Shown: positions 1 to 43,912 of the stretch, piece by piece
Numbering within the stretch: position 1 is the first letter of the stretch
Layout: every line of letters starts with the position of its first letter
DNA from: a virus
DNA: 64,000 nt
IMG/VR virus record: IMGVR_UViG_3300032242_001752
Location: 1 to 64,000 of that record
Reading direction: 5' to 3' (one strand)
The notes under the pieces: generated by a model
What the model was told of the DNA's origin: nothing
What the model saw: only the letters and a program-made list of their open reading frames with translations
Databases searched by the model: none
Translations under genes and position numbers: made by a program

Positions 1-74
1 CCCAACTCAACAAAACGCTACAAACAACTTCGTTGTTTGTTTTAAGGGCTTTTGTAGCGTTTTGTTGAGTCGGG
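1..74. repeat. Long hairpin element with CCAACTCAACAA-type ends, copy 1
   Basis: 1-24 pairs with 51-74 (one mismatch); internal alternative hairpin ACAAACAAC-TTC-GTTGTTTGT. Confidence 0.9.
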
Positions 75-79
75 CGTGT

Positions 80-98
80 CGTTATCAAATTGTTATAA
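80..98. promoter_or_regulatory. 19-bp box CGTTATCAWWYGTTATAA-type (copy 1 of 9)
   Basis: CGTTATCAAATTGTTATAA; same motif at 959, 987(rc), 2064, 2093, 2121(rc), 3306, 3328, 3365. Confidence 0.85.
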
Positions 99-114
99 AC
101 TCACCCCCGAGGGG

Positions 115-144
115 GCGAGGAGGGCCTGGGCAAACCCTCCTCGC
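115..144 (-). terminator. GC-rich hairpin after cassette 1 genes
   Basis: GCGAGGAGGG/CCCTCCTCGC 10-bp stem just 3' of the stop at 152; no clear U-tract. Confidence 0.55.
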
Positions 145-151
145 TGTTCAA

Positions 152-448
152 TCAAACTATTGTGATAAGTGAAACTGGTGTGTCTTGTTCAGTGCAATAC
201 TGAAGTTTACCCCAAGGTGTTTCCACGAAGAAGTAATAGCCCTGACAGTCTAATTCGTGAAACGCTTTGAATAGCCCAGATAAGCGTGGATTATTTGGAG
301 GTGATTGACAAGCGCCCAGAAGTTCGATTTTGACTGGCTCAACTAGGAACTCGTCCTCTAAATACCTAAGTATAGCCATTACATAACCGTTCCATAGTTC
401 GCCATCGGCTCCTGTGGTGAGGTGTTGCTCTGTGATTCTAATTTCCAT
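152..448 (-). CDS. hypothetical (probably early) protein
   Basis: 98-aa ORF, RBS AAAGGAAA upstream. Confidence 0.8.
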   Translation of the reverse strand: MEIRITEQHLTTGADGELWNGYVMAILRYLEDEFLVEPVKIELLGACQSPPNNPRLSGLFKAFHELDCQGYYFFVETPWGKLQYCTEQDTPVSLITIV

Positions 449-470
449 TTTTCGTTTCCTTTGGTTAGAA

Positions 471-500
471 GTGAGCCAGTTTTAGGACATGGCTCAGGTC
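471..500 (-). ncRNA. intergenic H-type pseudoknot motif, copy 1
   Basis: GAC-C-TGAGCCA-T-GTC-CTAAAAC-TGGCTCA; covaries with 3 other copies. Confidence 0.7.
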
Positions 501-506
501 GCAAGG

Positions 507-857
507 TTATCTAGGGCTAATTGTCCCAGATTCTACACCCTTGATAAATTCACCAAGAGTGGAGTGGATTAGCACGATTTCGGCTAGTGTGAACTGACCA
601 CGCAATAACTCCGTGTTAGTGTATAGCGTTTCACCATAAAGACCAGTTAGGTAAACCCAAACATCTCGGTCAATGTGGATGGCGTGCTTGCCCTCGTTGC
701 CGTGCCAAACAGACACAGACACAAGGTCGGTTGTGTGAGGACTTACTACATCCTCGCCAGCGATGTTGTTGGTAGAGATTTCGCCCTTTACCCAAGTTTC
801 GTGATTCTCAACTGGTTCGGGTTTCACCTCAACCTTGATTTGGTGCTTAGTGTTCAT
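507..857 (-). CDS. hypothetical (probably early) protein
   Basis: 116-aa ORF, RBS TAGGAG. Confidence 0.8.
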   Translation of the reverse strand: MNTKHQIKVEVKPEPVENHETWVKGEISTNNIAGEDVVSPHTTDLVSVSVWHGNEGKHAIHIDRDVWVYLTGLYGETLYTNTELLRGQFTLAEIVLIHSTLGEFIKGVESGTISPR

Positions 858-926
858 ACTGAACTCCTAAATAAGTGTAAAGACTGCCCAGATAACTTTT
901 GTTCTCTCTCGTTCCTTACAAAAACT

Positions 927-977
927 AATCTAGCCTATTACACACATACCCCCCCTGTCGTTATCATTTTGTTATAA
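927..977 (-). promoter_or_regulatory. cassette promoter: 19-bp box-N7-GGGTATG-N12-TAGATT
   Basis: identical spacing in three cassettes. Confidence 0.75.
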
Positions 978-1005
978 ATCTCTGCTTTATAACGATTTGA
1001 TAACG
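959..1005. repeat. inverted pair of 19-bp boxes with 9-nt spacer
   Basis: 959-977 and 987-1005(rc); same geometry at 2093-2139. Confidence 0.85.
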
Positions 1006-1007
1006 AA

Positions 1008-1099
1008 CCAACTCAACAAAAGCTAATGGCAGCAAGCTGCCTATTAGCTTTATAATACCTAGGCTATATAATTATAGCCAGGTATTATTGTTGAGTTGG
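1008..1099. repeat. T-shaped (three-way) palindromic element, copy 2
   Basis: outer stem CCAACTCAACAA/TTGTTGAGTTGG; arm hairpins 1020-1050 and 1053-1087. Confidence 0.9.
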
Positions 1100-1171
1100 C
1101 GCACCTCTGCCCCTCTGCTCCCGAGCACGCCAAAACCAGCCCCCATTGCTGGGGACTGGCTGGCTGGTTGC

Positions 1172-1417
1172 TTACATCACTTTGTGTTCGCAATCACACT
1201 TTGCATCGTGGTCGCGACCCAGTGAACCTTCGGGCAAGTCTAGACTACGCTCCAACAGGTCTAAGCCTGTCCAGAATGACTCACGCCAGCCTGGGCTGTC
1301 GTCCCAGTCCTGTTGGTGATAATAGTCCAGAGCCGTAGTTATCTTGTCCACTAACTGAGTAGCAGTCTTTGTGATAGCGTGGTTTTGTAGGGTTACCCAG
1401 ATTTGTTCTTCGAACAT
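1172..1417 (-). CDS. hypothetical (probably early) protein
   Basis: 81-aa ORF, RBS AAAGGAAA; C-terminal HDAKCDCEH. Confidence 0.8.
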   Translation of the reverse strand: MFEEQIWVTLQNHAITKTATQLVDKITTALDYYHQQDWDDSPGWRESFWTGLDLLERSLDLPEGSLGRDHDAKCDCEHKVM

Positions 1418-1442
1418 TTTATTTCCTTTTCTTGTTTGTAGG

Positions 1443-1473
1443 GTGAGCCAGTTTAGACACTTGGCTCAGGTGT
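1443..1473 (-). ncRNA. intergenic H-type pseudoknot motif, copy 2
   Basis: ACAC-C-TGAGCCA-A-GTGT-CTAAAC-TGGCTCA. Confidence 0.7.
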
Positions 1474-1481
1474 TGGTTTTA

Positions 1482-1961
1482 CTAGTTGATTAGTCCTAGT
1501 TCGCGGTGCTCAAACTCAACTTCAAAGGCACTTGCTTTTAGACACTTGCCGTCAGTTAGTTCGTGGTCGCAAACTCCGTCAAAGCAGTCGGACTCTTGCG
1601 TGAATACCACAAAGGTATCTGCTAAGTGGCAACGCTGAGCAGTCCACGTGCTAGGACCATAAAGGTCGTATTCCATAGCCGTCAAAAATACGCCGTCGTG
1701 TTCGCCGTTAGTTGCGTATGTGATGCCGTCCATGTCGCAAGAGTCAAAGAATGACTGAATGCTCGCAAAGTAGTTGCCGAATGCTTCCCAGTATTCAACT
1801 CGTTTGATGTCAGTTCCTGATGTCATACCACGCCAAGTTTGCTGACGTTCATTGACATCTTTCCTGCTATACCAATACTTGACCAGTTCCAAAGGCGTGT
1901 CAAGCGTATAAGTGTAATCGCTAGACTCAACGGAACTGACTAACAAAGGATTTGTATCCAT
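1482..1961 (-). CDS. hypothetical (probably early) protein
   Basis: 159-aa acidic ORF downstream of the cassette promoter. Confidence 0.8.
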   Translation of the reverse strand: MDTNPLLVSSVESSDYTYTLDTPLELVKYWYSRKDVNERQQTWRGMTSGTDIKRVEYWEAFGNYFASIQSFFDSCDMDGITYATNGEHDGVFLTAMEYDLYGPSTWTAQRCHLADTFVVFTQESDCFDGVCDHELTDGKCLKASAFEVEFEHRELGLIN

Positions 1962-2031
1962 TGCCCGTTCTCTCTGCTAGGGAACTACTTGCCTAGACAC
2001 TTTATCTAGGTCCCGTTTCCCTAACAAGATA

Positions 2032-2082
2032 AGACTATGCTATTTTAGGCATACCCTATCTCTCGTTATCAATTCGTTATAA
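2032..2082 (-). promoter_or_regulatory. cassette promoter: 19-bp box-N7-GGGTATG-N12-TAGTCT
   Basis: same spacing as 927-977 and 3274-3324. Confidence 0.75.
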
Positions 2083-2092
2083 TCTTTTTTTT

Positions 2093-2139
2093 CGTTATCA
2101 TTTCGTTATAAACTCTCGCTTTATAACAATTTGATAACG
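2093..2139. repeat. inverted pair of 19-bp boxes with 9-nt spacer
   Basis: 2093-2111 and 2121-2139(rc). Confidence 0.85.
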
Positions 2140-2142
2140 GCC

Positions 2143-2248
2143 CCAACTCAACAAAACTATTGGCAAAAAGGCCTGACGGCCTTTTAGCCTAATAGTTTTA
2201 GCCCTATACTATGCTAAAGCATATAGTATACGGGCTTTGTTGAGTTGG
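2143..2248. repeat. T-shaped (three-way) palindromic element, copy 3
   Basis: same 12-bp outer stem; two internal hairpins of largely different sequence. Confidence 0.9.
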
Positions 2249-2312
2249 CGCGATCTCTAGGCTGGCTGTGTCCCCGAAGGGAGGGAGGCTGGTTTCCCAG
2301 CCCCCCAGTTGT

Positions 2313-2531
2313 TTATTCTACTTCGTCTAATGCCCACGAAGTAAGTTTGATGTTTGTAATCTGTCTAGACGAATCTAGGCAGGTTTGACACAGGTGAGCG
2401 CCTTCATTTTCCACAGGGATCCACTGAGCCATGTGAGCCTTTGGAAGTGTAACAAAGACGCTAACAACTTTAGCGAAGTGTGTTGCCGGTGTTTCGGTTG
2501 ATGTTTCTAGGCATTTAGCACATAGATTCAT
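2313..2531 (-). CDS. small Zn-binding hypothetical protein
   Basis: CAKC...CQTC; start moved to ATG 2531 because the upstream GTG lies inside the pseudoknot motif. Confidence 0.7.
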   Translation of the reverse strand: MNLCAKCLETSTETPATHFAKVVSVFVTLPKAHMAQWIPVENEGAHLCQTCLDSSRQITNIKLTSWALDEVE

Positions 2532-2555
2532 TTCATTACTTTCTTGTTTGAGTGA

Positions 2556-2586
2556 GTGAGTCAGTTTATCCACTTGACTCAGGTGG
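2556..2586 (-). ncRNA. intergenic H-type pseudoknot motif, copy 3
   Basis: CCAC-C-TGAGTCA-A-GTGG-ATAAAC-TGACTCA; compensatory changes in both stems. Confidence 0.7.
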
Positions 2587-2591
2587 TATTG

Positions 2592-2771
2592 CTAGTGGCT
2601 AAATACGCTATGTGTTTCGTGCTTGCCACGTGGTCTTACAAGCATTAGCACCTTGTAAGTTTTGGTGTTGTTGATGTAGCAGTCAGGGTTGTCGCATTTC
2701 CAACAACCCGCTAAACCCTTGCCCATAAAGTAATCAAAGGTCTTGTTGTATAACTTGCAGTAAGTAGTCAT
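2592..2771 (-). CDS. 59-aa Cys-containing hypothetical protein (not in ORF track)
   Basis: MTTYCKLYNK...CWKCDNPDC...; TAATG overlap with upstream ORF. Confidence 0.6.
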   Translation of the reverse strand: MTTYCKLYNKTFDYFMGKGLAGCWKCDNPDCYINNTKTYKVLMLVRPRGKHETHSVFSH

Positions 2772-2857
2772 TACTTACCCGCTTTCTGCCATAGTCGCCC
2801 AATGTAGAAAGCGATAATCATTTCAAGTAAGTCTTGCCCATTGAATATGTGAATCAC
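2771..2857 (-). CDS. 28-aa microprotein (not in ORF track)
   Basis: GTG start after GAAAGG RBS: MIHIFNGQDLLEMIIAFYIGRLWQKAGK. Confidence 0.55.
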   Translation of the reverse strand: MIHIFNGQDLLEMIIAFYIGRLWQKAGK

Positions 2858-2880
2858 TTTGTTGCCTTTCTATTTGTAGG

Positions 2881-2910
2881 GTGGCAGTTTTGGACGGGTC
2901 TGCCAACCGT
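2881..2910 (-). ncRNA. intergenic H-type pseudoknot motif, copy 4 (diverged)
   Basis: ACGG-T-TGGCAG-AC-CCGT-CCAAAA-CTGCCA. Confidence 0.6.
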
Positions 2911-2922
2911 GTTTGTTGCGAA

Positions 2923-3201
2923 CTAGATAGATGCTAAGTCAGCGACTACCCTAGCGTTTACCCTTGCCCAAAACTCAGCGCAGGTAATTTGGAATGGTTT
3001 GCCAAGTTCCAAAGCCGAGACTGTGGTGGCGTATAGTGTTTCCCAGCGTGCCATTTCTAGTTCGTATTCTTGAACCATAAACGCATCGTTGCTCGTAGCC
3101 TTGACTGTGGCTAGTGCTTCACTAGCCTTGTCGTAAGCATCACGAATTACACTAACAAGGTCTAACCCTGTCCTGTAATCCGTCTCTAAAACAATTTCCA
3201 T
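2923..3201 (-). CDS. hypothetical (probably early) protein
   Basis: ATG 3201 after GGAGAG; helical 92-aa protein. Confidence 0.75.
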   Translation of the reverse strand: MEIVLETDYRTGLDLVSVIRDAYDKASEALATVKATSNDAFMVQEYELEMARWETLYATTVSALELGKPFQITCAEFWARVNARVVADLASI

Positions 3202-3273
3202 TGCTCTCTCCAATTACCAAGCAACTCTCGCCTAAGCCCTTTTGTCTTAGTGTCTTGTTTGCCTGATAAAGCC

Positions 3274-3383
3274 AAACTATCAGTTTCACCACATACCCCA
3301 TTCGTCGTTATCAATTCGTTATAATGCCGTTATCATTTTGTTATCTAAGGGGGGTAGGGTTAATCGTTATCAAATCGTTATAA
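3274..3383 (-). promoter_or_regulatory. cassette promoter with three 19-bp boxes (3306, 3328, 3365)
   Basis: box-N7-GGGTATG-N12-TAGTTT. Confidence 0.75.
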
Positions 3384-3509
3384 TCCACCAGGCCACAGAT
3401 AGGATTTTTTGATTTAAATAGTCAGGCAGTAGCCTAAATGCGGGATATGCATTTTCAATTAAATATTTGATTAGGTGCGGGATTGGCCGCATTGGCTGCA
3501 TAGCTTATT

Positions 3510-3537
3510 TTGCAATGTCAGGGGTCTGTGCTATAAT
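3510..3537 (+). promoter_or_regulatory. sigmaA-type rightward promoter
   Basis: TTGCAA-N16-TATAAT with extended -10 TG. Confidence 0.6.
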
Positions 3538-3587
3538 TCCGGAAGCTTACGGTGCGGTTTCCCTGGTTTTAATACATAATGGATAAC

Positions 3588-3764
3588 ATGGAACCTGATA
3601 AGAACCAATTTGGTAGAATCAAGGACAAGGTTGTAAGCTTCCTTAAGTTTAAAGATAACAAGATAGCTGAGACTACGCCGTTTGGCCCTATGAGCAAGTA
3701 CCAAGAGAATCCTGAGAACAGGATTATACACAAGTCTGTGCGAGAGGACCGCAATGAGCGATGA
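3588..3764 (+). CDS. small protein, N-terminal MEPDKNQF
   Basis: ORF track (second ATG chosen); first of a chain of overlapping ORFs. Confidence 0.65.
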   Translation: MEPDKNQFGRIKDKVVSFLKFKDNKIAETTPFGPMSKYQENPENRIIHKSVREDRNER

Positions 3765-4044
3765 GCACGTGCACGTCATAACAGACTGTAAAGCTTGTGG
3801 AATAAAGCGGTTTGCAGAAGGAAAGCCGCGCGAGTCTCACTCAGTCATCCCAGTTGAAAAGGGAATTAGTGAAGTTCCAGCAACATATACCTTCTTAGCC
3901 GAGAGCTCACACGAATTAAATAACCACAAGCAAGATATGATACATAGAGTGTTTAGACAGACGAAAGGCAAGCCTTTCTTTAACCCTATGAACTCTAGAA
4001 TAGTAAACTTCAATCACGGCAAGGACCACAATGGAACCGAGTAA
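3754..4044 (+). CDS. hypothetical protein (CxxC)
   Basis: 96 aa, coupled to neighbours. Confidence 0.7.
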   Translation: MSDEHVHVITDCKACGIKRFAEGKPRESHSVIPVEKGISEVPATYTFLAESSHELNNHKQDMIHRVFRQTKGKPFFNPMNSRIVNFNHGKDHNGTE

Positions 4045-4507
4045 AGGTCAGTTTTACAATGTTAATGGCAACAGACGAGTTGTGACCACTTCTGTGCAGG
4101 AAAAGAACAAGCCTCACTACAAGCTAGTGGGAGAAGGCATCGACCGCGATGTCGCTGACTTGCTAGCCGAGCAAGAGGCCAATCCTACCTCTGGCCTTCG
4201 TGGCCGCAAGACCAAGGCTAGCGATCTAATGGGCAATCAAGAAAAACTACTTGAGAACCTAGGTAAAGACGTTAGAAGAACAGCAAGAGCCGAAGGTGCA
4301 TCAAACAAGTCTGAAAACACTCGTGAGCTAAGGACTGCAGAAGCTTTTAGAACTAACCCTACAATTGCTGAACTAATGAAACGAGAAGAGCCGCTTGAAG
4401 TAAGTGGTGACGCACTAGCCAGAGTTAGACGTGGCGATGCACCGAAGCTTATCGCAACCACCGCAACCTGGGATAAGCGTAAGAAAGACCTTGGTGTAGG
4501 AGAATAA
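4031..4507 (+). CDS. hypothetical protein, N-terminal MEPSKGQF
   Basis: 158 aa, RBS AAGGA. Confidence 0.8.
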   Translation: MEPSKGQFYNVNGNRRVVTTSVQEKNKPHYKLVGEGIDRDVADLLAEQEANPTSGLRGRKTKASDLMGNQEKLLENLGKDVRRTARAEGASNKSENTRELRTAEAFRTNPTIAELMKREEPLEVSGDALARVRRGDAPKLIATTATWDKRKKDLGVGE

Positions 4508-4827
4508 TGAGCAACGGAAGCAAAAAGACTAGAGCTGCGAGCAAGACTGGTAGAACAGCCCACTTTGAGGCTGGAGTCAGTGGTGGCCGCGAGTATTGGG
4601 ATAACAGAGACAATGGTCCTCACAAAAAGACCTATGAAGTGTCTAAGAGAGACACTCTTCCTTTTGGCCCTAAAGAGCAGAAGGCAACAAAACTAGGCTG
4701 GCACATGAAGACCGGTAAGTACCCTACACACCACCCATCTATGGAATATGATGAGCGTTGTTCTAAGTGTGAAGCTTTAGACAGTACTTTTGACCATCCT
4801 AATGGCCGTAAGATAACTGACGACTAA
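4507..4827 (+). CDS. hypothetical protein (CxxC)
   Basis: TAATG overlap. Confidence 0.75.
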   Translation: MSNGSKKTRAASKTGRTAHFEAGVSGGREYWDNRDNGPHKKTYEVSKRDTLPFGPKEQKATKLGWHMKTGKYPTHHPSMEYDERCSKCEALDSTFDHPNGRKITDD

Positions 4828-5279
4828 TGAAGCCACGCGATAGCCAGCTACCAGAAAAACCTAAGCACGACCACCCGTGGAAGCGTATTGAATGGGGTAA
4901 CGTTGCTCGCAGCAATGACACTGAAGGTAATAAGAGTGGATTTAAAAGCTTAGCTGGGGCAAAAGCAAAAGCCCGCAAGTGGCTAGAGGCTTCCGGATTA
5001 AATAGGCTACACGCACCAAAAGTAGCCGGAGCTGACCACGTTAATATTAAAATTACTAAAGATACCAATGGTGACCACAATATTGAATATCAAAATAAAT
5101 ATTGTGAAGCCTGCGCACCTGAGCGTATCCATACCATTAGCTCTACTCCTATCGAAAGTTGGAAAACAATAGCAGAAGAAGCAGCTGCCGGTAGAGATGT
5201 GCGTCCAGGCGGACACAGAAAATATGCAGTCCCAGCTAACCCAACTGAGACTCCGCCTCCTCATAGGATGGACGCGTAA
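4827..5279 (+). CDS. hypothetical protein, N-terminal MKPRDSQL
   Basis: TAATG overlap; CEAC motif. Confidence 0.75.
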   Translation: MKPRDSQLPEKPKHDHPWKRIEWGNVARSNDTEGNKSGFKSLAGAKAKARKWLEASGLNRLHAPKVAGADHVNIKITKDTNGDHNIEYQNKYCEACAPERIHTISSTPIESWKTIAEEAAAGRDVRPGGHRKYAVPANPTETPPPHRMDA

Positions 5280-5506
5280 TGAAGCCACGCGGGCTATTAG
5301 AAGAGTTCCAACACGGCCGTGCGCCGGAGCTCAACCAGGTGCTAGGTGTATTCACCCAAAATAATGCCGTTTTAGGGCTGGATGTACAAGGTGCAATTAG
5401 AATTAATGATGGTATCTTTACCGGGCCTAAAGGTGCATATCAAGGTTATACTAGTTCTGTTAACGCGTCTAATGTTACGCAAATACCTTATGGGAGCGCG
5501 CAATGA
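5279..5506 (+). CDS. hypothetical protein
   Basis: TAATG overlap; begins ATGAAGCCACGCG like the previous gene. Confidence 0.7.
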   Translation: MKPRGLLEEFQHGRAPELNQVLGVFTQNNAVLGLDVQGAIRINDGIFTGPKGAYQGYTSSVNASNVTQIPYGSAQ

Positions 5507-5679
5507 ATCCAAAAGAAGGCCAATTTAAAGGCCAGCTAAATGCTGAGCCGTCTGGTGAACTTGAGGTGTTAGAGCATCAATATCAAGAAGCTATGTCTCA
5601 GGACCCTCGCTACCTTACTGATGAGGACAAGCAGGAGATGAGTAACTTCTACGACAAGCAAGCAAAGGAAATGAAATAG
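5503..5679 (+). CDS. 58-aa protein, N-terminal MNPKEGQF (not in ORF track)
   Basis: ATGA overlap, GGAG RBS, fills the gap exactly. Confidence 0.7.
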   Translation: MNPKEGQFKGQLNAEPSGELEVLEHQYQEAMSQDPRYLTDEDKQEMSNFYDKQAKEMK

Positions 5680-5909
5680 TGCACCCTAAGTTTCGTCAAC
5701 TTCCACACAAGCCGCGTAATCCTCTACCAGTACGTTTAGAGGCACCAGAGCACGAGCACGACTTCCGCAGAAAATACTACCCAGATGGTACTTTAAAGTC
5801 TCAGACCAACTGTAAGACGCGTTACTGCAATGTTATGCCAGGAGTAAACGACTATGGAAAGCCGTATCCTGCTACTATTCACGACCCAAAACCTAAAGAG
5901 GATAACTAA
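5679..5909 (+). CDS. hypothetical protein, N-terminal MHPKFRQL
   Basis: TAGTG overlap. Confidence 0.7.
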   Translation: MHPKFRQLPHKPRNPLPVRLEAPEHEHDFRRKYYPDGTLKSQTNCKTRYCNVMPGVNDYGKPYPATIHDPKPKEDN

Positions 5910-6250
5910 TGGCTGAAAAGAAAAAAGCAACTAGTAAGAAGAAGAACAAGACCTTAGCGGGCAAAACTTCTGATGGTAAGAAGGTCTATGGCCCTTTTAA
6001 GGGCTCAAAGAAAAACGGTGGTCGTCCCATGATGTCTGTCGTAAATCCAGATGGCTCACGCACGTCTATCTCAGCTGCTCGTTATAAGTATGAAAAGACT
6101 CACGGCAAGCTTCCTAAGAATGTTGACGTGGACCACAAGAACAATAACCACTCTGATGATAAATCAGGCAACCTTCGCGCTTTAGCTCACGGTAAGAACA
6201 CTGCTAAAGAGAACAAGCGCCGCGCAGGAAAGAAAGAGAACCAGAAGTAA
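5909..6250 (+). CDS. HNH endonuclease-like basic protein
   Basis: DVDHKNNNHSDD..NLRAL..N motif. Confidence 0.75.
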   Translation: MAEKKKATSKKKNKTLAGKTSDGKKVYGPFKGSKKNGGRPMMSVVNPDGSRTSISAARYKYEKTHGKLPKNVDVDHKNNNHSDDKSGNLRALAHGKNTAKENKRRAGKKENQK

Positions 6251-6591
6251 TGGCTACTCCAGCTAAAAAAGTATCAAAGCCTGCTGTAAAGCCGGCTTCT
6301 AAAAAAGTAGCTGCTAAGCCAGCTGCTAGGCCAGCTGTTAAGCCAGCTACTAAACCGGCTGTTAAACCCGCTGCTAAAGAAAAGTACAATCCTAAAGCAG
6401 CTATTTGGGGTTGCTACGGGTGCGGTCACGCAAATGCTCCGGAAGAAAAAACATGCTGGGATTGCGAAACTAGCCACCCAGGACAGATGAGATGGCTTGA
6501 CCCTTCAACAGGTGAAACTGCTTCTGGAAAACAAATTGCTGCTGCGCCTAAGTCTTTGAGAGACAGAGTATCTGCTGCATACAAAGACTAG
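6250..6591 (+). CDS. histone-like KPA-repeat protein with Zn ribbon
   Basis: tandem KPA(A/V) repeats; WGCYGC...CWDC. Confidence 0.7.
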   Translation: MATPAKKVSKPAVKPASKKVAAKPAARPAVKPATKPAVKPAAKEKYNPKAAIWGCYGCGHANAPEEKTCWDCETSHPGQMRWLDPSTGETASGKQIAAAPKSLRDRVSAAYKD

Positions 6592-11849: not shown

Positions 11850-13430
11850 ATGAATGACAATGAAGAGTACTATGACGATGAACTCGATGAATATGAGGAC
11901 TCTGTTGATAGTGAGTTTGAGCCGTATGACGATGGCTTAGATGAATTATCTCGTGAATTTGTAGACCAATTAATTGATAAAATTATGGTTTTTATGCACG
12001 CTCTTATTGGACATGAACTACGCACTTATCAAAAGCCTTTAGCACGCCGTATCATCGAATCTGTGGTTATCAATGAGGGTGAAGAAATTACCGCACTGGC
12101 TTCTCGTCAGTCCGGTAAGTCTGAGACTGTAGCCGATACCGTAGCCGCTCTTATGGTTATTCTTCCTAGGCTCGCCAAGATGTACCCTGACCTACTAGGT
12201 CGTTTCAAAGACGGACTGTGGGTAGGCTTATTCGCCCCTGTAGAAAGCCAGGCAGAAACTCTATTTAGTCGTGTCATTACTCGCCTTACAAGTGAACACG
12301 CTCTAGCTGTGCTTGAAGACCCTGAGATTGACGATGAGGCTAAGAAGGTTGCTGGTGTTACCAAGCAGGTTAAACTTCTTAACTCTGGCTCATCAGTAAT
12401 GATGATGACTGCCAACCCTAGAGCCAAAATTGAGTCTAAGACTTTCCATCTTATCGTTATTGATGAGTGTCAGGAAGCGGATGACTTTATCGTAGCTAAG
12501 TCTATCGGTCCTATGCTTGCGTCTACAAACGGTACTATGGTAAAAACCGGTACCCCTACTACACATAAAAACAATTTCTATCGCGCAATCCAACTCAACA
12601 AACGCCGTGCTACTGGCCGAGGCGGAAAGCAAAATCACTTTCAGTGGGACTGGCGCGATGTCGCTAAGGTAAGCGAAGAGTACGGTAAGTTCGTTCGTAA
12701 AGAGATGCTCCGTATCGGCGAGGACTCTGACGAGTTCCAGATGGCCTATAACTGTAAGTGGCTTCTAGAACGCGGTATGTTTGTGTCATCTACCGTCATG
12801 GATGAGCTAGGCGATACATCCATGAAGACTATAAAGGCCTGGCACCGTACCCCAGTTATCGTAGGTATTGACCCTGCCCGTAAAATGGACTCGACAGTAG
12901 TAACTGTTATTTGGGTGGACTGGGATAGGCCCGATGAGTTTGGTTACTATGACCACCGCGTGTTTAACTGGCTAGAGATTCAAAATGATGACTGGGAAGA
13001 CCAGTACTTTCAAATCGTTAACTTCCTAGAAAACTATAACGTCCTGTATGTTGGCGTAGATGCCAATGGTGTTGGGGATGCAGTAGCTCAACGTCTACGT
13101 TTATTGTTGCCTAGAGCCGAGGTTATTTCTGTAAGCAGTAGCCAGCAAGAGCAGTCTAAACGTTGGAAGCACTTAAAGACCTTGATTGAACGCCGCCTTA
13201 TCGGGTGGCCTGCTCACGCTGAAACTCGTAGGTCTAGGTCATGGAAGCGTTTTTATCAGCAAATGACTGACCTAGAGATTAAGTTCCAGGGTCCTAATTT
13301 CCTAGCCCATGCGCCTGAAGAAGCCCATGCTCACGATGACTATGCTGATAGTTTGGCTATTGCAGTAAGCTTAACGCTAGATCTTACGATGCCTTCTGTA
13401 GAAGTAAGTTCTTCACCATTTTTTAGATAA
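11850..13430 (+). CDS. terL: terminase large subunit
   Basis: Walker A ASRQSGKSE, Walker B IVIDECQ, nuclease GIDPAR and DDYADS. Confidence 0.95.
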   Translation: MNDNEEYYDDELDEYEDSVDSEFEPYDDGLDELSREFVDQLIDKIMVFMHALIGHELRTYQKPLARRIIESVVINEGEEITALASRQSGKSETVADTVAALMVILPRLAKMYPDLLGRFKDGLWVGLFAPVESQAETLFSRVITRLTSEHALAVLEDPEIDDEAKKVAGVTKQVKLLNSGSSVMMMTANPRAKIESKTFHLIVIDECQEADDFIVAKSIGPMLASTNGTMVKTGTPTTHKNNFYRAIQLNKRRATGRGGKQNHFQWDWRDVAKVSEEYGKFVRKEMLRIGEDSDEFQMAYNCKWLLERGMFVSSTVMDELGDTSMKTIKAWHRTPVIVGIDPARKMDSTVVTVIWVDWDRPDEFGYYDHRVFNWLEIQNDDWEDQYFQIVNFLENYNVLYVGVDANGVGDAVAQRLRLLLPRAEVISVSSSQQEQSKRWKHLKTLIERRLIGWPAHAETRRSRSWKRFYQQMTDLEIKFQGPNFLAHAPEEAHAHDDYADSLAIAVSLTLDLTMPSVEVSSSPFFR

Positions 13431-34323: not shown

Positions 34324-34610
34324 TGCCTATTTATCTTGGCTCTAGATATGAAAAAATGCCAGTTAAGTTCTTTACGTTTAATCCCAATAGAGACCCTGGA
34401 CCTGTAGTTTACTACGAATTTTCTTCAGTACCTACATCTAAAATGAACTACTCCGTATATCAGTGGAAGACCGGTGACCGCATAGAATCTTTGGCTGCCC
34501 AGTTTTATTCTTACCCTACTAAATGGTGGATTATTGCTGACCATAACCCGCAGATTTCTGACTGGTTAAACGTTCCTATTGGCACAGAGATTAGGATTCC
34601 GCGTGCCTAG
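34323..34610 (+). CDS. LysM-like (tail X) baseplate protein
   Basis: GDRIESLA..FY..P.KWW.IAD.NP...IRIP. Confidence 0.8.
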   Translation: MPIYLGSRYEKMPVKFFTFNPNRDPGPVVYYEFSSVPTSKMNYSVYQWKTGDRIESLAAQFYSYPTKWWIIADHNPQISDWLNVPIGTEIRIPRA

Positions 34611-35949
34611 TACAGTTAGTCTACTAGCAGATAACGGCGCAGTTACCTCTGGTTATGCGTCTGTTTATTTTCCTGAAAGCCCTAATGCTCCTAGAAGGGT
34701 ATATAAAGTTACCCTTCGGCAAGAAGTATTTTCGCATGACTATGCTGATATTTATTTCAGGGACTGGAAAGTAAATCCTTCTACTATTAAACCAATGACT
34801 AAAATAGTATTAACTATTAGAAATAAGAAATACCACGGATTTGTTCATAATGTTGAGAATGTTCAGGAGTCCGCTAAGAACTTTACAAAGATTGGTTTCA
34901 TAGGTGCTTCACACGTATTTAGGCAGTCTAGCCAAAAGATTTATCGTGATGTAACTGCTAGCCAGGTGATTGTTGAGTTGGCAAAGAAGTATAACTTTGC
35001 ATATAAAGTTACCCCACATAAGAGAGTCTATTCTTCTATTGTTCAAGGTGGCCGAACTGATTGGCAGCTAATGGTAGATTTAGCTAATGAATGTGGTTAC
35101 TTCTTACGAGCAGAAAACACCGAGATTTACTTTCACCCATTAATGGAAGACTTTAACTACTATATAAATGAAGCTGTAATTTTTGATAAGGGCGACGCTG
35201 GATTTAAAGGCAGAAGACCAATCTATAATTTTAGTCCGGTAATTAGCGAAACCATGACCCACTTTGGTTTTAAAAAAGCCGCTACTTCTATTGCTGGTGT
35301 TAACCCTATTGACGGAACTACCTTTAAAATTACTAATCAAGACCCGTTTACCCCTAACCGTGTAAGCTCAAACCCTGAATCTTTTGACGACCATGATACT
35401 ACTGCTGTAGCAAATGACTATACTACTGCATCACTTTTGGCTAAAAGTTCAGATGACTATAGTAGCTTTCCATACATTGCGGATGTAGACACCATCGGTA
35501 TTGAAAAAGTACGCCCATGCCTTCCCGTATACCTAAATAACGTAGGTGACCAATACTCAGGATACTGGACGGTCTTAAGTATTAGGCATGAAGTAATTGA
35601 GGCTCAGTTAAATCAGCCGCTATACACATGTTCCATGACCGTAGCCACTGACTCTTTAGGGCAAATATCTGATCCTAATAAGCCTGTTATTCCACCAACT
35701 AATCCAGTTAGAACTATTATTCCTAATGTAGATAATACGGTTATTGTTCCACAAACTGTTATTAATAGTCCTGGTTTATCTATTATTCCAATTCCACAAT
35801 ACGAAATTGTTGATAGAATTAACCGTCCAGGTATTGATGTTCAGCTAGCTTCTGTGTCTAAGTGGGCATCTACTCACGGCGACCTTAATTACAGATATAG
35901 TGAAAATAACATGCCGCCTATTGTCCGTGCAAAGGTGATTACGATATGA
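34603..35949 (+). CDS. baseplate hub protein (GpD/gp27-like)
   Basis: TASQVI..LA..Y, Q...TDWQL...LA, YSG.W.V..I.H. Confidence 0.75.
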   Translation: MPSTVSLLADNGAVTSGYASVYFPESPNAPRRVYKVTLRQEVFSHDYADIYFRDWKVNPSTIKPMTKIVLTIRNKKYHGFVHNVENVQESAKNFTKIGFIGASHVFRQSSQKIYRDVTASQVIVELAKKYNFAYKVTPHKRVYSSIVQGGRTDWQLMVDLANECGYFLRAENTEIYFHPLMEDFNYYINEAVIFDKGDAGFKGRRPIYNFSPVISETMTHFGFKKAATSIAGVNPIDGTTFKITNQDPFTPNRVSSNPESFDDHDTTAVANDYTTASLLAKSSDDYSSFPYIADVDTIGIEKVRPCLPVYLNNVGDQYSGYWTVLSIRHEVIEAQLNQPLYTCSMTVATDSLGQISDPNKPVIPPTNPVRTIIPNVDNTVIVPQTVINSPGLSIIPIPQYEIVDRINRPGIDVQLASVSKWASTHGDLNYRYSENNMPPIVRAKVITI

Positions 35950-37100: not shown

Positions 37101-39261
37101 TACAGTAACCTCTACTGTAACTTATATCCCGCAAATTGATTACACTTCTAGGGATTATGTTTCCATAGTCAACGATTTGACTACTATTGCCCAGCAGTTC
37201 AACCCTACCTGGAGTGCTAGCGATCCTACGGATATCGGTGTTACTCTAATTGAGCTATTTGCCTATTTAGGTGACCTATTAAATTATTATGCAGACCGTT
37301 CTGCATCAGAAGGGTTCCTAGCTACAGCTAGTCAGAGACAAAGCATTTTGCAATTAGCAGCTATGTTTGGATATACCGTTACTACTAATCAACCAGCGGT
37401 TGCAACAATTACGCTTGCAAATACTTCTGGAAGCTCTGTCACTGTGCCTGCATTAACCCAATTAAAATCTACCCAGGTAGTTAACGGACAAAATACAGAT
37501 GTTACTTTTGAACTAGATGCTGATACTACTATTTCAGCAAACAGTTCTGTTACCACTACGGCTACTCAGGGCATTACATATTCGAATGTTACTCTAGGAA
37601 CTTCCACAGGCGCGCCTAATCAAGTATTTAAAATTAATGCTATTGGCGTAATAGTTAATGGCGTAGGAGCTACTGCAAGCCTTAAAGTGTATGTCGGTAC
37701 TACACAGTACACTTATGTGTCTTCTCTAATTGACAGCGCTTCTTATGACTCTACATTTACTACATCAATTGATGCTGATGGTTACACCTACATCATTTTT
37801 GGAGATGGAGTAGCTGGCCGTATTCCACCAGCATCTTTGACTGTAAGCGCTACTTATAGACTTGGAGTAGGTTCTCAAGGAAACGTCCCCGCAGGTACTA
37901 TTCTAAGCCTAGCTACTAATAACGTATCTAACGTTACCGTTACTCAACCTTCTGCTGCCACTGGCGGAGCTGATATAGAAAGCAGCGACTCAATTAGAGT
38001 TAATGCTCCAAGAGCGTTAAGAACTTTGCGCAGAGCAGTTTCATTAAAAGATTATGCTTACATGGCTTTACAAGTAGCCGGTGTAGCAAAAGCTATTGCA
38101 GACTCATCTGTATGGACCACAGTTAACTTATATATTGGACCTTACAGCACTGCCGCTACAAGTACATATGGGCCTTACACCGGTGTTACTGCCATTGCTG
38201 CCACTGCATCAGACAGTACTACCGGAAGCGGTTATCTAACCTACACTTGTGCAAACTCCGGATTAGCTGTTGGTCAATATGTAACAGTTACAGGTATGGC
38301 ACCTGTTAACTATAATATTTACACTCCCGCATTAATAACATACGCAGATACTACGAAGTTTACTGTTGCGGGTAGCATAGCAGGAACATTTAATCAGTCG
38401 TTATCTGCTACAGCCCAAGTAACATCTACAGGCTCTAACTCATCTGATTTTAATACTTTAGCTAGCACAGTTCTTACCTACTTCACTGATAAGGTAGCTC
38501 CAAACGTTACGCTTAACGTACTTCCTCCTACATATGTGCAACTTAACTTAGATATGACTGTTCAAGTTTTAAAACAGTATCAGCAATCAGCTGTTTTGGC
38601 TCAAGTAAATAACGTTTTATCAAATCTATTTGATTATACAAACGCATTCTTTGCTGATAAAGTTCCGCAGCAGTATATTCTTCAGGCTTTAAGTAATATT
38701 GATGGTGTAGACATCACTACAAAAGTAACTCATCTTCGCAAAAATAAAGATGAAAAAATCTTTAGCGTGGCTAGCTGGACAGCTACTACCTCAGCAGTTA
38801 CTCTAACAACTACTGCTGCGCACACAATAACTGTGGGCTCTACGATTAGGGTTTATAACGTAGACCCTACTATTGATGGCTCATATACAGTAACCTCTGT
38901 GGGAAGCACGACAGTTACGTTTAACCTAACTGGAACTGCTACTCCTACAGGTATTACGGCATCTGCATGGACTACTGCGTCTACACAGTTAACTGGTTTA
39001 TCAAGCGTTGCAGGTATTACTGTCGGTATGAACGTTACTGGAACTAACTTAGTAAGCACTGTAAAATCGGTTGGTACTACAACTATTGACCTTGTTACTA
39101 AGCCAACGGGCTCTGGTTCAGGAGCGCTTACGTTTACTAAGCCATATACAGCTGCAGATAACTACGTTAAAGTAGTTGCTGTAGATGACATTGTATGTGC
39201 TACAAATGAAATTCCTATTCAAGGCATATTTAATATTACCGCTGTTGGCGGACTTTCTTAA
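37093..39261 (+). CDS. baseplate J-like protein
   Basis: DYTSRDY, FGDG..G.IP, GG.D.ES, RAVSLKDY. Confidence 0.9.
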   Translation: MSSTVTSTVTYIPQIDYTSRDYVSIVNDLTTIAQQFNPTWSASDPTDIGVTLIELFAYLGDLLNYYADRSASEGFLATASQRQSILQLAAMFGYTVTTNQPAVATITLANTSGSSVTVPALTQLKSTQVVNGQNTDVTFELDADTTISANSSVTTTATQGITYSNVTLGTSTGAPNQVFKINAIGVIVNGVGATASLKVYVGTTQYTYVSSLIDSASYDSTFTTSIDADGYTYIIFGDGVAGRIPPASLTVSATYRLGVGSQGNVPAGTILSLATNNVSNVTVTQPSAATGGADIESSDSIRVNAPRALRTLRRAVSLKDYAYMALQVAGVAKAIADSSVWTTVNLYIGPYSTAATSTYGPYTGVTAIAATASDSTTGSGYLTYTCANSGLAVGQYVTVTGMAPVNYNIYTPALITYADTTKFTVAGSIAGTFNQSLSATAQVTSTGSNSSDFNTLASTVLTYFTDKVAPNVTLNVLPPTYVQLNLDMTVQVLKQYQQSAVLAQVNNVLSNLFDYTNAFFADKVPQQYILQALSNIDGVDITTKVTHLRKNKDEKIFSVASWTATTSAVTLTTTAAHTITVGSTIRVYNVDPTIDGSYTVTSVGSTTVTFNLTGTATPTGITASAWTTASTQLTGLSSVAGITVGMNVTGTNLVSTVKSVGTTTIDLVTKPTGSGSGALTFTKPYTAADNYVKVVAVDDIVCATNEIPIQGIFNITAVGGLS

Positions 39262-39272
39262 GGAGAAAATAA

Positions 39273-39983
39273 ATGGCAAGCTATCCAAGTAACGTTAAAT
39301 CGTTTACAACTAAGGTTGACGGAGTCACTACAGTCGCCGCCGCTGACATTAATGACGTTCAAAGTGAAATTGTAGCTGTTGAGACAGCTCTGGGCACTAA
39401 CCCTGCTACTTCTGTGCTAGGTTCTGGCTCTATTGGCTCATACACAGCTGCTCCGGGCACACTAACTAACGTGAGTGCCAGGCTTCAAAATATTGAGGCC
39501 GGACTTAGTGCCAGCTCTACAGACGGTTCTCGCATTGGATACACTCAATTAGCCACTGGTTCTGTTGGTACATCTACTTCTATCACGGTTGCTGGTGCTA
39601 GCTATGTAAAACTTGTTGTAGTAATAAATATTACTACTATTGGTTCTGGTACAGCTATTACTATGGGCGCAAACAGTGCCACCTCATCTAAATACGGTCA
39701 CTTTAGCTTTGCCGCTACTCCAGCAGGTTTGGGTAGCGCAGCTGGTTCTGGTGGTATTCCGGTGTCTAGCGCACAGGTTCCTGCAAGCGGTGACACTATC
39801 ACAGTTGAATTCTACAACGTTGCTGGTGCTGGAGTTAAGCCTGTTAGCTTTATTAACGCGTATGGTTGGGGTACCGGCGCTTTGATTTCTGGTGGAACAG
39901 TTACCTCTGCTATTACTACAATTACTATAACCTGTAGCACAGCTCCAACTACATCTACTTACACAGTTTACGGCGTTAAGTAA
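39273..39983 (+). CDS. tail fibre or structural protein
   Basis: A.DINDVQ.EI.AVE..LG N-terminus; ends YGVK. Confidence 0.6.
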   Translation: MASYPSNVKSFTTKVDGVTTVAAADINDVQSEIVAVETALGTNPATSVLGSGSIGSYTAAPGTLTNVSARLQNIEAGLSASSTDGSRIGYTQLATGSVGTSTSITVAGASYVKLVVVINITTIGSGTAITMGANSATSSKYGHFSFAATPAGLGSAAGSGGIPVSSAQVPASGDTITVEFYNVAGAGVKPVSFINAYGWGTGALISGGTVTSAITTITITCSTAPTTSTYTVYGVK

Positions 39984-39994
39984 CAGGAAAATAA

Positions 39995-42900
39995 ATGACA
40001 ATCTATGGTTCTAAACCCTATTACTCTTTTACATACGGTTCTCCGGCTGTATTAGACTTTAGCATATCTCCGTTTAAAGCGATTGCTACGGACTATGGAA
40101 CTATATCTTTGTCTTGGTATATGCCTGGTTATGATGCTACTTTCTCAAAGTTAATCGTATTAAGAAGCGCACTAGGATTTCCTACAACTGCTGACGAAGG
40201 CGATTTAATTTATTCCACGACTAAGGTTGCTTTGTCTGTTGGAGGAAGCGGAACCCCAGTTACTTTAACTGGAGTAACATCATCCGGAACTAAATTTACA
40301 GTGTCTAGCACTACTGGTTTATCTGTAGGACAAACTATTACAGTGACTTCAGGTACGGGTACTTTATCCACTTCCGATATTACATATATTTCACAAATAC
40401 TTAGTTCTACAACTTTTTCAGTTAATCTGGCACCTAGCGTTGCGCTCTCTGGAGCTACCATAACTGCAACTAATTCTTTGTTAAATAAGAAGTTTACCTA
40501 TGTAGATAGTGGTGCGTATATCGACCAGCTAACTGGCTCTACAACTCCTACATACACTGCAACTACAGCGTTAGCTGTAAATAATGACACTCGCGTTACG
40601 CTAAAAGCAAGCAATTCAAACATTGCTGTTAAACAGTCAGTTACATATAAATCCAGCGGAAAAACTACAGGTCCTAACTCCGGTAGCGGTATCGTTGGTG
40701 GAACTACTGTTGCATCTATCAACGGAACTTCTTTAGTTCTTAGCGACTACGCTAATATCCCATCTGATACCGTACTAACATTTTCCCCTGTTTCTTTAGA
40801 TACAGGGCAGACTTATTACTACTCTATCTTTGTATATTCAAATAACTATTGGCAAAGAGTAGGTAAGCCTGCTGCCGGAGTTTCTATTAAAAATTATAAT
40901 ACCGCAACAACGATGTATGAACATTTGCCAGAGGTGTATCGTTCTCCTGCCGCGCTATCGTCATTCTCCACTGCTACTCAAAACGTAGATCTGTATAACT
41001 TTTTACGAGTATTTGCTGTTCAGTACGATCTTACAAAGACTATGATTGATAACGCTAAGAATAGATATGATGTTAAAAATCTTGATGGTCGTATGATTCC
41101 CGCTATGCTGGCGAGTTTTGGATTTAACTATGAAAGTGTTTTAGGGCTTCAGCAAGCTAGAAGGCTGCTTCAATACGCATCCTTTATTTATTTGAATAAA
41201 GGCTCTGTAAAAGGGCTTAAAGAGTTTATTGCAGCATTTGCGGGTTATAACGTGACTATTGGTAGCATAAAAAATCTTCTGCTTACACTAGACTGCTCTT
41301 CTTTTGAAAACGGAACTGGTTTTTGGGATATTACTTCCGGTACAGCCACTATAACTAATACCAACTCAACAACAGAAGGCGGAAGTCCGGCCCCTTATTT
41401 AGAGGCTAATTCTCCAGTGGGTTACTTAAATAAACAGGCTGGTTATCTAAAAGTATCTGCAACCTCCGGCGCGTCTGCTGTAACTATCAGCTACGGAAAC
41501 TCATTAGATGATTATGCAATTAGCACAACGGTTACTACAACCACTACGGGTTATGTAACCTTAACTACTGATAAATCTAACCCATTTACTGTAGGTCAAT
41601 CGGTAAATATTAAAGGCCTTTCCCCAGCATCTGTAAACGGTGTTTATAAAATAGTTAGCGTAAGTTCCTCCAGAGTATTTACTTTAGCTAATGCCGCTGT
41701 TTCATCAGGAACTGCTATTTCGGGGTCAGGTTTTGCATCCGTATTTGATCCTACTTTGTATGGAGTACCTGTAACTGCCGGTAACTACTATAAATTAGGT
41801 ATTTATAGCCAACCAAAAACTGGAAGCAGTTGCAGTATTACAGTTGGTATTAACTGGTATGACCAATTTGGGTCATACTTAAGCACTGTATTTGATGGCC
41901 CTTACGGTGCAACTACCCCTGGTTCTTGGACTCAAACTATAAATACTGCCCAGCTTGCTCCGGCAAGAGCCGCATACGCTGTTCCTTACTTTACCCTAGA
42001 TACATTTACTGGTACTCCGGACGTAGAATACTTTGATGCAGCGCAGTTTGAACAAGCCTATAGTACGGCATATAATCCGCTTCCATACACAGACGCTAGA
42101 CGTTTAGATTTGTATTTAACTCCTACCAGAGCTAATGAAATTATTAATCCTGGTTTTGAAACATCTGTAGCTAACTGGTCAGTTACTAATGGAAGCATTG
42201 CTCTAGAAACTGGGGCATCTAATATTTATCCAACCGCTAGCATTGGCGCAGGTACTTCTGTAAGTGCTGGATCAGCTAAGATTACGGCAACAGGTTCGAT
42301 TACCACACTTACTCAACTACTTTCAATATCTAACGTGTCCGTAGCCACTAGCGGAAGGTTACTTATTGGAACAGGGTATAGCACTTATGGAACCAATAAT
42401 TTATCCCTAGGCCAAACTATAACTAAAATATCTGGAACGGGTACTTTAGCAGCTAGTACCTTGATATCGTCTATTCAATCTTCTTCAAGATTTACAGTTA
42501 GCCCTAACCCAACTGGTAGTGGAAATATGACTATTGGTGTATCTGGCACTAAAATACTTCCAAATTTATCTTATGCACTTAGTATGTACGTAAGCGGAAC
42601 AGCCGGAGCAACAATAACTCCTACAGTTGTTTGGAAAAATTCTTCTGGAACTACTGTTCAAACAGATACTGGCTCAGCTACTACGCTAACTTCTTCGTTC
42701 CAGAGAGTATCTTTACTGCCATCTTCTATTTTTGGAACGGTATCTACTTCTTCATTATTTAGCACATCATTAGTTTTAACAACTGACATTTCTGCAGTCA
42801 CTGGTCAATCGGTAAGCGGTGCAGGCATTTTAGCCGGAACTACCGTATCTTCTTACAATAGTAGTACTAAAACTATTACGCTTAGCCAAGCCGCAACTGT

Positions 42901-43911: not shown

Positions 43912-43912
43912 T

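Follow-up and report, generated by a model that had tools for sequence, protein, structure and literature searches.

The window analysed here is the first 64,000 nt of IMG/VR record IMGVR_UViG_3300032242_001752, an 88,562-nt record of an uncultured freshwater myophage (the source phage) rated 97% complete; positions marked "genome" refer to the whole record. At the left end of the window three palindromic elements (A7, positions 1–74; A8, 1008–1099; A9, 2143–2248) alternate with minus-strand units of small ORFans. The open reading frames (ORFs) of these units are 152–448 and 507–857; 1172–1417 and 1482–1961; and 2313–2573, 2592–2771 and 2923–3213. Most of them (152–3213) have no homologue in the 78%-identical relative G001. 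The early genes lie on the minus strand from about 3,400 leftwards, via the junction of the contig ends, to about 75,400. The contig ends share a 14-nt overlap, CCCAACTCAACAAA, inside A7. The assembly break therefore fell within this element, which is whole and starts at genome position 88549/88550.

Anatomy of the palindromic elements

The original prediction, made from the letters of the window, described three elements with fixed ends. The ends are exact inverted pairs of 12-mers, CCAACTCAACAA and TTGTTGAGTTGG, in A8 (1008–1019/1088–1099) and A9 (2143–2154/2237–2248), while the third pair, in A7 (2–13/62–73), carries one mismatch (TTGTTGAGTCGG). All three fold as predicted. As single-stranded DNA (ssDNA) the plus strands reach −22.6, −33.8 and −35.2 kcal/mol and the minus strands about the same values, with z-scores from −6.8 to −11.9 and none of 200 shuffles as stable. 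The shapes were also correctly described. A7 (form A, see below) is a single long hairpin with a 23-bp outer stem, in which one A.C / G.T position falls within the 12-mer; its centre is asymmetric and contains a small CAAACAAC/GTTGTTTG sub-hairpin. A8 and A9, also of form A, are T-shaped: A8 has a 12-bp base and two inner hairpins with one bulged base each, one of these arms being a conserved TGGCAGC..GCTGCC-T-A hairpin, and A9 has a 13-bp base and two bulged inner hairpins.

The three elements are thus real, but they are part of a family of nine in this genome, the other six lying at genome 82153–87794. In four of the nine the order of the cores is reversed, i.e. TTGTTGAGTTGG...CCAACTCAACAA (form B). 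Exact copies of the 12-mer CCAACTCAACAA occur 22 times in the 88.5 kb, where about 0.01 occurrences are expected. The interiors had been taken to differ almost completely. They do vary from element to element, but they are not free sequence: beyond the 12-mer the arms contain two tandem 7–8-nt words with GCC, and each shape has motifs in common. Form A loops carry a T-rich stretch and then AGG/GGGG on the plus strand, with the same polarity in 19 of the 19 loops examined; form B centres share TAACAGC-T-run and a small hairpin; T-shaped members share a TGGCARC...GYTGCC-T-A hairpin.

To collect the family, IMG/VR and JGI metagenomes were scanned with patterns for form A and form B. Fourteen viral contigs and 38 metagenome stretches provided 125 distinct elements of 56–116 nt, 94 of them simple hairpins, and the reversed core order was found in 25 of these 94. 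In the common plan both ends consist of an invariant 12-bp word, the two copies being inverted, followed inwards by 12–19 further complementary bp and an A+T-rich asymmetric centre. Because the arms are perfectly complementary, the same long hairpin can form from either strand, and the duplex can extrude a cruciform.

The form A pattern had no match in 185,579 bacterial and archaeal species genomes. In the same genomes the form B pattern had one match, an unrelated low-complexity repeat in a Saprospiraceae metagenome-assembled genome (MAG). This repeat (positions 5560–5790 of locus L126, from contig JADZBJ010000103.1) is a long inverted repeat of tandem GT-rich and CA-rich words (GGTTATTTGGTTATTCGTTGA...) between two convergent ORFs; its 5′ end lies 97 nt past the plus-strand gene and its 3′ end extends 28 nt into the next ORF call. 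The 12-mer in it arises by chance from the composition of the words, and nothing else in the repeat resembles the phage. An Rfam search (E≤10) returned one sub-threshold chance match, a plastid 3′ untranslated region (UTR) hairpin, and a full-text literature search for the 12-mer found primers in unrelated papers only.

Pairing in the arms

Beyond the 12-mer, the arms of the 94 simple hairpins comprise 1,381 variable pairs, among which there is not one mismatch and not one G.T pair. For form B elements (n = 20) each of the positions 13–23 is occupied by two to four pair types, 100% of them Watson-Crick. Homologous T-shaped elements of the source phage and G001 differ by compensatory double changes (A8 versus G001 46139–46232). 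The proposal that structure is conserved where sequence is not is borne out by these changes, by the pairing kept in homologues and by the absence of mismatches.

An RNA stem under selection is expected to carry a few per cent of G.U pairs. The complete lack of G.U implies either that both DNA strands must pair or that one arm is corrected from the other by template switching, which is an established mutational mechanism at quasi-palindromes. In addition, the elements follow a terminator and precede the next promoter (see below) and would therefore be found at most in read-through RNA. Given the exclusively Watson-Crick pairing, the equal folding of both strands and this position, we treat them as DNA elements rather than RNA genes.

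The elements mark the junctions of early units

On the sense strand each early unit ends with a G+C-rich terminator-type hairpin, usually with a U-run. The elements (9/9) lie 0–30 nt past this hairpin and 2–8 nt before the next promoter boxes, A7 excepted. The element is followed by one to three boxes (TTATAAC-N4-TGATAAC) and, in this order, by GGGGTATG, a 5′ UTR that contains a further small hairpin, and the genes. Each unit is thus predicted to be served by a box-type promoter region and a terminator hairpin of its own. The boxes do not match the sigma-70 consensus in a consensus scan.

The three junctions of the window follow this arrangement, with the reservation made for A7. At A7, G+C-rich terminator-type hairpins (104–143, minus strand) stand past the stop codon of gene 152–448, upstream of the element on the sense strand, and are separated from it by one promoter-type box (CGTTATCAAATTGTTATAAA, GTTAT-N6-GTTAT, 79–99) and a 56-nt spacer. 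At A8 the terminator-type hairpin CCAGTCCCCAGCAATGGGGGCTGG followed by TTTTGG (1130–1160, minus strand) lies past gene 1172–1417 and ends 30 nt before the element. On the other side of A8 an inverted box pair (958–1006) begins 2 nt away, followed on the minus strand by GGGGGTATGTG and the 5′ UTR of unit 152–857. At A9 G+C-rich hairpins (2265–2305, minus strand) past gene 2313–2573 come just before the element, and the three boxes that adjoin it (2063–2139) head unit 1172–1961. The first leftward unit, 2313–3213, is also headed by three boxes (3303–3384) and has no palindrome upstream. As the first promoter of the arm is without a palindrome, the elements mark unit junctions, not promoters as such.

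Within the units, a conserved hairpin (GTGAGCCAGTTT...GGCTCAGGT) is found between both genes at 471–499, 1443–1471 and 2556–2584, in each case just upstream of the start of the second gene.

Other readings of the boxes and arms were tried and rejected. A plus-strand promoter driving the element as a small RNA was considered on account of TGTTATAAA or TATAAT 7–9 nt upstream of some copies; the consensus scan is negative there and, the nearest box being inverted at A8 and A9, the geometry is not constant. A sigma-54-type reading of the TGGCAAC..GTTGCC arm has the right spacing in one copy only. The boxes were also compared with IHF sites (GTTATCAnnnnGTTATAA fits WATCAANNNNTTR), a reading that was dropped because a WhiB gene implies a probable actinobacterial host and because G001 uses a different box. 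The WhiB-type transcription factor is encoded at 63169–63543 (PF02467, E = 4e-14); since, in addition, the closest terminases (53%) come from Streptomyces phages, an actinobacterial host is probable.

The location just past terminators raises the possibility that the elements are back-up insulators acting as RNA: read-through transcripts would fold a 25–31-bp hairpin, terminator-like or cut by RNase III, and so keep the units separate. The U-run of the preceding terminator often abuts the element, and the flanks of form A, C/A-rich before and U/G-rich after the hairpin, resemble the A- and U-tracts of a bidirectional intrinsic terminator. The word UUGUUGAGUUGG has 7 U in 12, and in the relative G007 two terminators, at the far end of the minus-strand arm, have U-rich tails formed by the complement of a related motif. 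The elements fold very stably as RNA (−32 to −57 kcal/mol), and the polarity of form A loops is fixed relative to transcription. In form B, however, the hairpin is preceded by the U/G-rich tract and followed by the C/A-rich one (4/9 here; 25/94 among simple hairpins), and the preceding terminator already has a U-run. The absence of G.U from 1,381 variable pairs is not expected from selection on RNA alone. Moreover, a tail tract needs neither twelve invariant letters with single-base variants by lineage nor exact solitary copies within genes, and the T-shaped members with their conserved bulges are left unexplained. Such a role is possible but rather unlikely. If the elements were plain back-up terminators, the total lack of G.U would still need explaining, template-switch correction being one possibility.

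One element downstream of each cassette is also what integron-type attC sites would provide, and the original prediction had likened the elements to attC. In that case an IntI-type tyrosine recombinase would act on the folded strand at the G/TT of the right-hand core. Form A does fit the attC core consensus RYYYAAC...GTTRRRY (ACTCAAC...GTTGAGT), as had been noticed, and its length lies in the attC range; sequence varies while the fold is conserved, as in attC, and some members of both groups are branched with bulged bases, here single ones in the T-shaped members. But the likeness in cores and length holds for form A only, form B reversing the core order in about a quarter of the simple hairpins. 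Membership of the attC family does not hold up: an unpaired central spacer and L boxes are missing, and simple hairpins have no extrahelical bases that would mark a strand. Their stems run uninterrupted from the 12-mer into the arms, and bulged bases are confined to the inner hairpins of T-shaped members. Furthermore, attC cassettes are mostly promoterless and have a common promoter, whereas here each comes with a promoter and terminator of its own. An integrase is also missing: the genome, 97% complete, contains no tyrosine, serine or Y1-HUH recombinase (PF00589, PF00239, PF01797), the search for PF00589 giving no match at E≤1 while all control genomes matched. The elements were not found in bacterial genomes, and the probable host phylum rarely carries integrons. 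We regard the integron reading as extremely improbable; the elements may be attC-like as structured cassette boundaries, yet outside the attC family.

Cassette turnover and edges among relatives

More than 590 related terminase loci are present in IMG/VR, and the elements are found in a subclade of these. The complete genome of G001 (87,293 nt) is collinear with the source phage at about 75–80% identity, the early arm excepted. This arm is the least conserved part of the genome relative to both G001 and a second relative, G005, and most of its ORFs have no homologues there. Tables of order and content show that the cassettes between palindromes have been gained, lost and reordered. For example, a DUF932 unit between two form B elements is present in the source phage and in contig L015, and missing from G001 and L012.

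The edges of homology repeatedly coincide with those of the elements. Element 86866–86933 (genome) and G001 40202–40268 are identical at 67 of 68 positions, in genomes that are about 78% identical, and their flanks are unrelated immediately outside both 12-mers; the promoter type differs too. The match of source phage positions 1008–1432 to G001 begins exactly at the outer edge of the 12-mer. Seven pairs of elements are 100% identical in distinct contexts, and in four of the seven at least one flank is below 75% identity. Finally, the centre of element 83923–84004 (genome) is inverted relative to its L015 homologue, the flanks remaining collinear.

The promoter boxes behave differently from the 12-mer. 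They are of the type ATAAC-N6-ATAAC in the source phage and GTTCA-N6-GTTCA at the same places in G001 (39250–46140), and the 12-mer is unchanged. As the box type switches while the 12-mer stays, the two should have separate readers. The switch resembles an early-promoter specificity change between close relatives. In G005 the arms of one element contain promoter boxes.

Discrete units with sharp edges at terminal inverted repeats, found between unrelated flanks, could also be selfish miniature palindromes, comparable to miniature inverted-repeat transposable elements (MITEs) or to repetitive extragenic palindromic (REP) sequences, inserted in the safe spacer past terminators and functionless for the phage. 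Their confinement to intergenic spacers and their absence from two complete relatives, G006 and G007, would be in keeping with this. Yet the element edges show no target-site duplications, no transposase of the families tested (PF00589, PF00239, PF01797) is encoded, and the species genomes contain none save the one unrelated low-complexity repeat. There is one element per junction, in the early arm only; the interiors differ in every copy, unlike those of MITE families, and form A loops keep one polarity. We find this origin improbable. REP sequences and bacterial interspersed mosaic elements (BIMEs) of enterobacteria are similar in being palindromic units, arranged as inverted pairs past the 3′ ends of operons, sometimes beside protein-binding sites. 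REPs are, however, imperfect palindromes of 20–40 nt, conserved throughout, chromosomal, transcribed with the operon and linked to RAYT transposases; in the present elements conservation is confined to the ends, the arms pair perfectly and the position is past the terminator, and the genome has no match to PF01797.

The 12-mer as a separate unit and its candidate reader

Four solitary exact 12-mers lie outside the early arm of the source phage, where about 0.01 would be expected. Three are inside coding sequences: at 12590–12601 (plus strand) in the large terminase gene, where G001 differs by two synonymous changes, at 34970–34981 (minus strand) in ORF 34579–35949 and at 41361–41372 (plus strand) in ORF 39995–43240. 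The fourth, at genome 75219, is in a convergent spacer at the far end of the early arm.

Each lineage has its own variant of the core. The source phage and G001 have CCAACTCAACAA; G005 and the L031–L041 group have CCAACCCAACAA, which in the G005 lineage is found in both palindromes and solitary copies, with at least two of the latter in G005. In five contigs one solitary CCAACCCAACAA copy has been retained, about 7.0 kb downstream of the start of the terminase. The complete genome of G007 (94 kb) has no palindromes; it carries 7–8 copies of CCAACACAAACAA, all co-oriented with transcription (16528, 16581, 18844, 21935, 24994, 35162, 42117 and 51008). Some are just past stop codons, one is in the loop of a 10-bp hairpin, and two adjoin the terminators with which the minus-strand arm ends. 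Palindromes and core motif are both absent from G006. A single variant in all copies of a genome, solitary ones included, is the pattern expected from a co-evolving trans-acting reader.

Gene presence and absence were profiled for such a reader. Among about 20 candidates, a gene for a small HNH_3 endonuclease with a Lys-rich N-terminus (5909–6250, plus strand; family match) is alone in also following the motif into G007. It is one of about eight genes, of about 140 ORFs, that are present in G001, G005 and G007 and missing from G006. A terminase tree was built from 26 loci for which sufficient upstream DNA was available. In this tree the HNH gene accompanies the core motif throughout an 11-row TerL clade (support 100/98) and in G007, and both are missing from the sisters L047, G006 and L090. 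The HNH protein is thus a candidate reader, because its gene is present wherever the core motif is present among the relatives examined. A PDB sequence search with it gave nothing significant. Directly past this gene, positions 6250–6591 encode a 113-aa protein with a four-cysteine zinc ribbon at its C-terminus and an Ala/Pro/Lys-rich (PAKKA-type) tail at its N-terminus, as in actinobacterial histone-like proteins.

An asymmetric word of 12–13 bp, present in many copies, specific to the lineage and also found alone, could also be the docking site of a phage DNA-binding regulator (a stoperator, a roadblock or an early shut-off), which would block transcription at the borders of units or organise it there, the palindromic interior being secondary. 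The 13-bp stoperators of cluster A actinophages are sites of this kind; in the mycobacteriophages of this cluster they are single duplex sites spread over the genomes of temperate phages and bound by the immunity repressor. The likeness extends to lineage variants, to orientation relative to transcription (all 7 copies in G007 are co-oriented with it) and to the hosts, probably actinobacterial here as well; in addition, the source phage encodes helix-turn-helix (HTH) proteins. Here, however, the sites are the bases of long hairpins and are concentrated in the early arm. A regulator leaves unexplained the 12–19 further perfectly self-complementary bp in 94 elements as well as the T-shapes; the centre-to-centre distance of the two sites varies from 51 to 94 bp with no helical phasing between the paired 12-mers; the sites do not overlap promoters, and no repressor or lysogeny genes were found. 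We consider this role unlikely.

Proposed boundary and crossover modules of the early cassette array

The reading that we favour, with a probability of roughly 0.4, is that the elements are DNA-level boundary and crossover modules of the early cassette array, read by a sequence-specific phage factor. It is supported by the location between terminator and promoter, the DNA-type pairing, the discreteness of the modules, the turnover of the cassettes and the inversion of a centre, as well as by the single core variant per genome, the co-occurrence with the HNH gene, the presence of recombination genes and the precedent of T4-type phages described below. Anatomy, location, DNA-type pairing, mosaic boundaries at the edges of the elements and the lack of the three recombinase families searched for are direct observations.

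The 12-mer would be the docking or cutting site of this factor, since the variant is specific to the lineage and recurs in the solitary copies; the small HNH endonuclease is, speculatively, its reader. The inverted pair of 12-mers together with the hairpin would make the junction a defined point of break or crossover. Exchange, deletion and insertion of cassettes and palindromes between co-infecting relatives could then be carried out by RecA (61593–62609, plus strand), a Cas4-like exonuclease (genome 63581–64456) and a RuvC-like resolvase (genome 64952–65542), which, judging from these gene assignments, give the phage its own recombination machinery. Differences between the interiors would make neighbouring junctions recombine together less often, and template switching at quasi-palindromes may contribute to keeping the arms perfect. 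The alternative to attC to which the original prediction turned, a site in cruciform or single-stranded form on which a nuclease or recombinase acts, is still viable.

Several observations weigh against this reading. Homology breakpoints are also found in 5′ UTRs and between promoter boxes and genes; the 12-mers are thus not the sole crossover points, and the junction as a whole is mosaic. G006 and G007 are complete and have no elements, which are thus not essential to this phage group. The solitary cores of the source phage are not conserved in G001. Form A loops have one polarity relative to the genes (19/19), which a symmetric crossover site does not explain, and a benefit in "evolvability" is a weak explanation for the invariance of 12 bp. 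As to the reader, its role is proposed from sequence patterns. The association between HNH gene and motif is a lead, not proof, as it consists of two independent co-occurrences only; locus L105 has the HNH gene and no motif in its 12 kb; and small HNH proteins encoded close to packaging genes often work for the terminase instead.

A more specific version, which we hold to be doubtful, makes the early arm a system of integrase-free cassette exchange in which the small HNH enzyme nicks the asymmetric 12-mer and the break is repaired from a relative. Facing 12-mers across a palindrome would yield a staggered break whose self-complementary overhangs snap into hairpins. RecA, the exonuclease and the RuvC-like resolvase would repair it from a co-infecting relative, so that host-takeover or anti-defence cassettes and palindromes would be copied in and out between boundaries that coincide exactly with the 12-mers. 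The solitary cores of late genes would only be nicked, or would be footprints of such events.

Comparison with known systems

The closest parallel that we can draw is with the promoter-early stem-loop (PeSL) cassettes of T4-type phages (Arbiol et al. 2010, PMC2839356; Comeau et al. 2014, PMC4122927). In those phages recombination between conserved intergenic promoter/stem-loop modules moves ORFan cassettes and forms mini-circles (PMC2839356). In both systems a composite conserved non-coding module separates small early genes that are non-essential and lie where the genome varies most, and the units have a promoter and terminator of their own, here predicted from a promoter-type region and a terminator hairpin at each junction. 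In both, indels and replacements among relatives are bounded by the modules (here with sharp ends at the 12-mers, and some ends elsewhere), and the phage's own recombination system is presumed to do the exchange. They differ in that the conserved parts of a PeSL are a sigma-70-type promoter and a terminator stem-loop, whereas here an extra palindrome of 56–116 nt stands between promoter and terminator, and the promoter boxes change (from the ATAAC type to the GTTCA type in G001) while the 12-mer stays. The source phage also belongs to another phage group, with probably another host phylum.

The original prediction had also named DNA-entry signals such as the iss of phage T5, and the elements might more generally be signals on single-stranded or entering DNA: priming sites for the DnaG-type primase, hairpin promoters or stops of a stepwise entry. 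The same hairpin does form from either strand; the loops have a conserved T-rich...TAGGGG motif that resembles the TAGGGT of early promoters, one G005 element holds promoter boxes within its arms, and the early arm includes gene families of plasmid leading regions (DUF932, DUF3846). A tailed phage, however, delivers double-stranded DNA, nine origins or nine stops are without precedent, and the large ORFs showed no virion RNA polymerase. In T5, iss forms a single untranslated block of about 1.2 kb that is conserved, contains DnaA boxes and keeps its repeats in a fixed order (10.1101/866236). Against this, the nine elements are dispersed, one per unit boundary, and their interiors vary, so that the likeness to iss was not upheld. 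Signals of this class are very improbable.

The early arms of virulent phages hold most of the unknown host-takeover and anti-defence genes and turn over faster than other parts of the genome. How units move without wrecking their neighbours is known only in outline, from the T4-type PeSLs. The family described here, from phages that are abundant in fresh water, offers a sharply defined cis element: twelve invariant letters, a perfect variable hairpin, two core orders, lineage variants and a candidate reader. If a protein reads or cuts these sites, they would represent a new organisation of exchangeable cassettes, parallel to integrons with a different chemistry. They would also be a practical handle on cassette boundaries, and hence on candidate anti-defence genes, in metagenomes.

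Other features of the genome

Structural and replication genes in the window include those for the large terminase, an SPP1-type portal, tail sheath, baseplate J and DNA polymerase A. A DnaB-type helicase, a DnaG-type primase, an SNF2 helicase, a Dam-type methylase and a DenV-type glycosylase are also encoded. A megablast search of positions 1–6000 found no match among isolated phages. Parts of the sequence are present in a few sequencing runs (small shares only), whose labels are those of aquatic or freshwater metagenomes, and Logan contigs from DNA runs that align to the stretch are broken at the repeated 12-mers, with low-depth joints from relatives. The host possibly belongs to a freshwater lineage of about 44% G+C.

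DUF932, DUF3846 and Api92/DUF1281-like families are typical of the leading regions of conjugative plasmids and of anti-defence islands. In the early cassettes of the source phage they are represented by DUF932 (genome 84921–85937), DUF3846 (genome 86194–86538) and a weak Api92/DUF1281-like protein (genome 82770–83459). One of the HTH proteins is encoded in a distal early cassette (genome 82345–82689). The minus-strand arm past the last palindrome (genome 78167–81681 and 75418–75903) encodes a MoxR-type AAA+ ATPase, a VWA/CoxE-type partner and a type IV prepilin peptidase (A24).

Elsewhere, a DpdA-type (queuine tRNA-ribosyltransferase-like) gene (genome 73724–75169) and a DUF1599 "nucleotide modification associated" gene (genome 65925–66422) suggest that the phage DNA may contain 7-deazaguanine bases. 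Near the divergent region the sole good match to a sigma-70-type promoter, TTTGCA-17-TATAAT preceded by a TG (3509–3537), is oriented rightwards, towards the basic small proteins encoded at 3754–6591.

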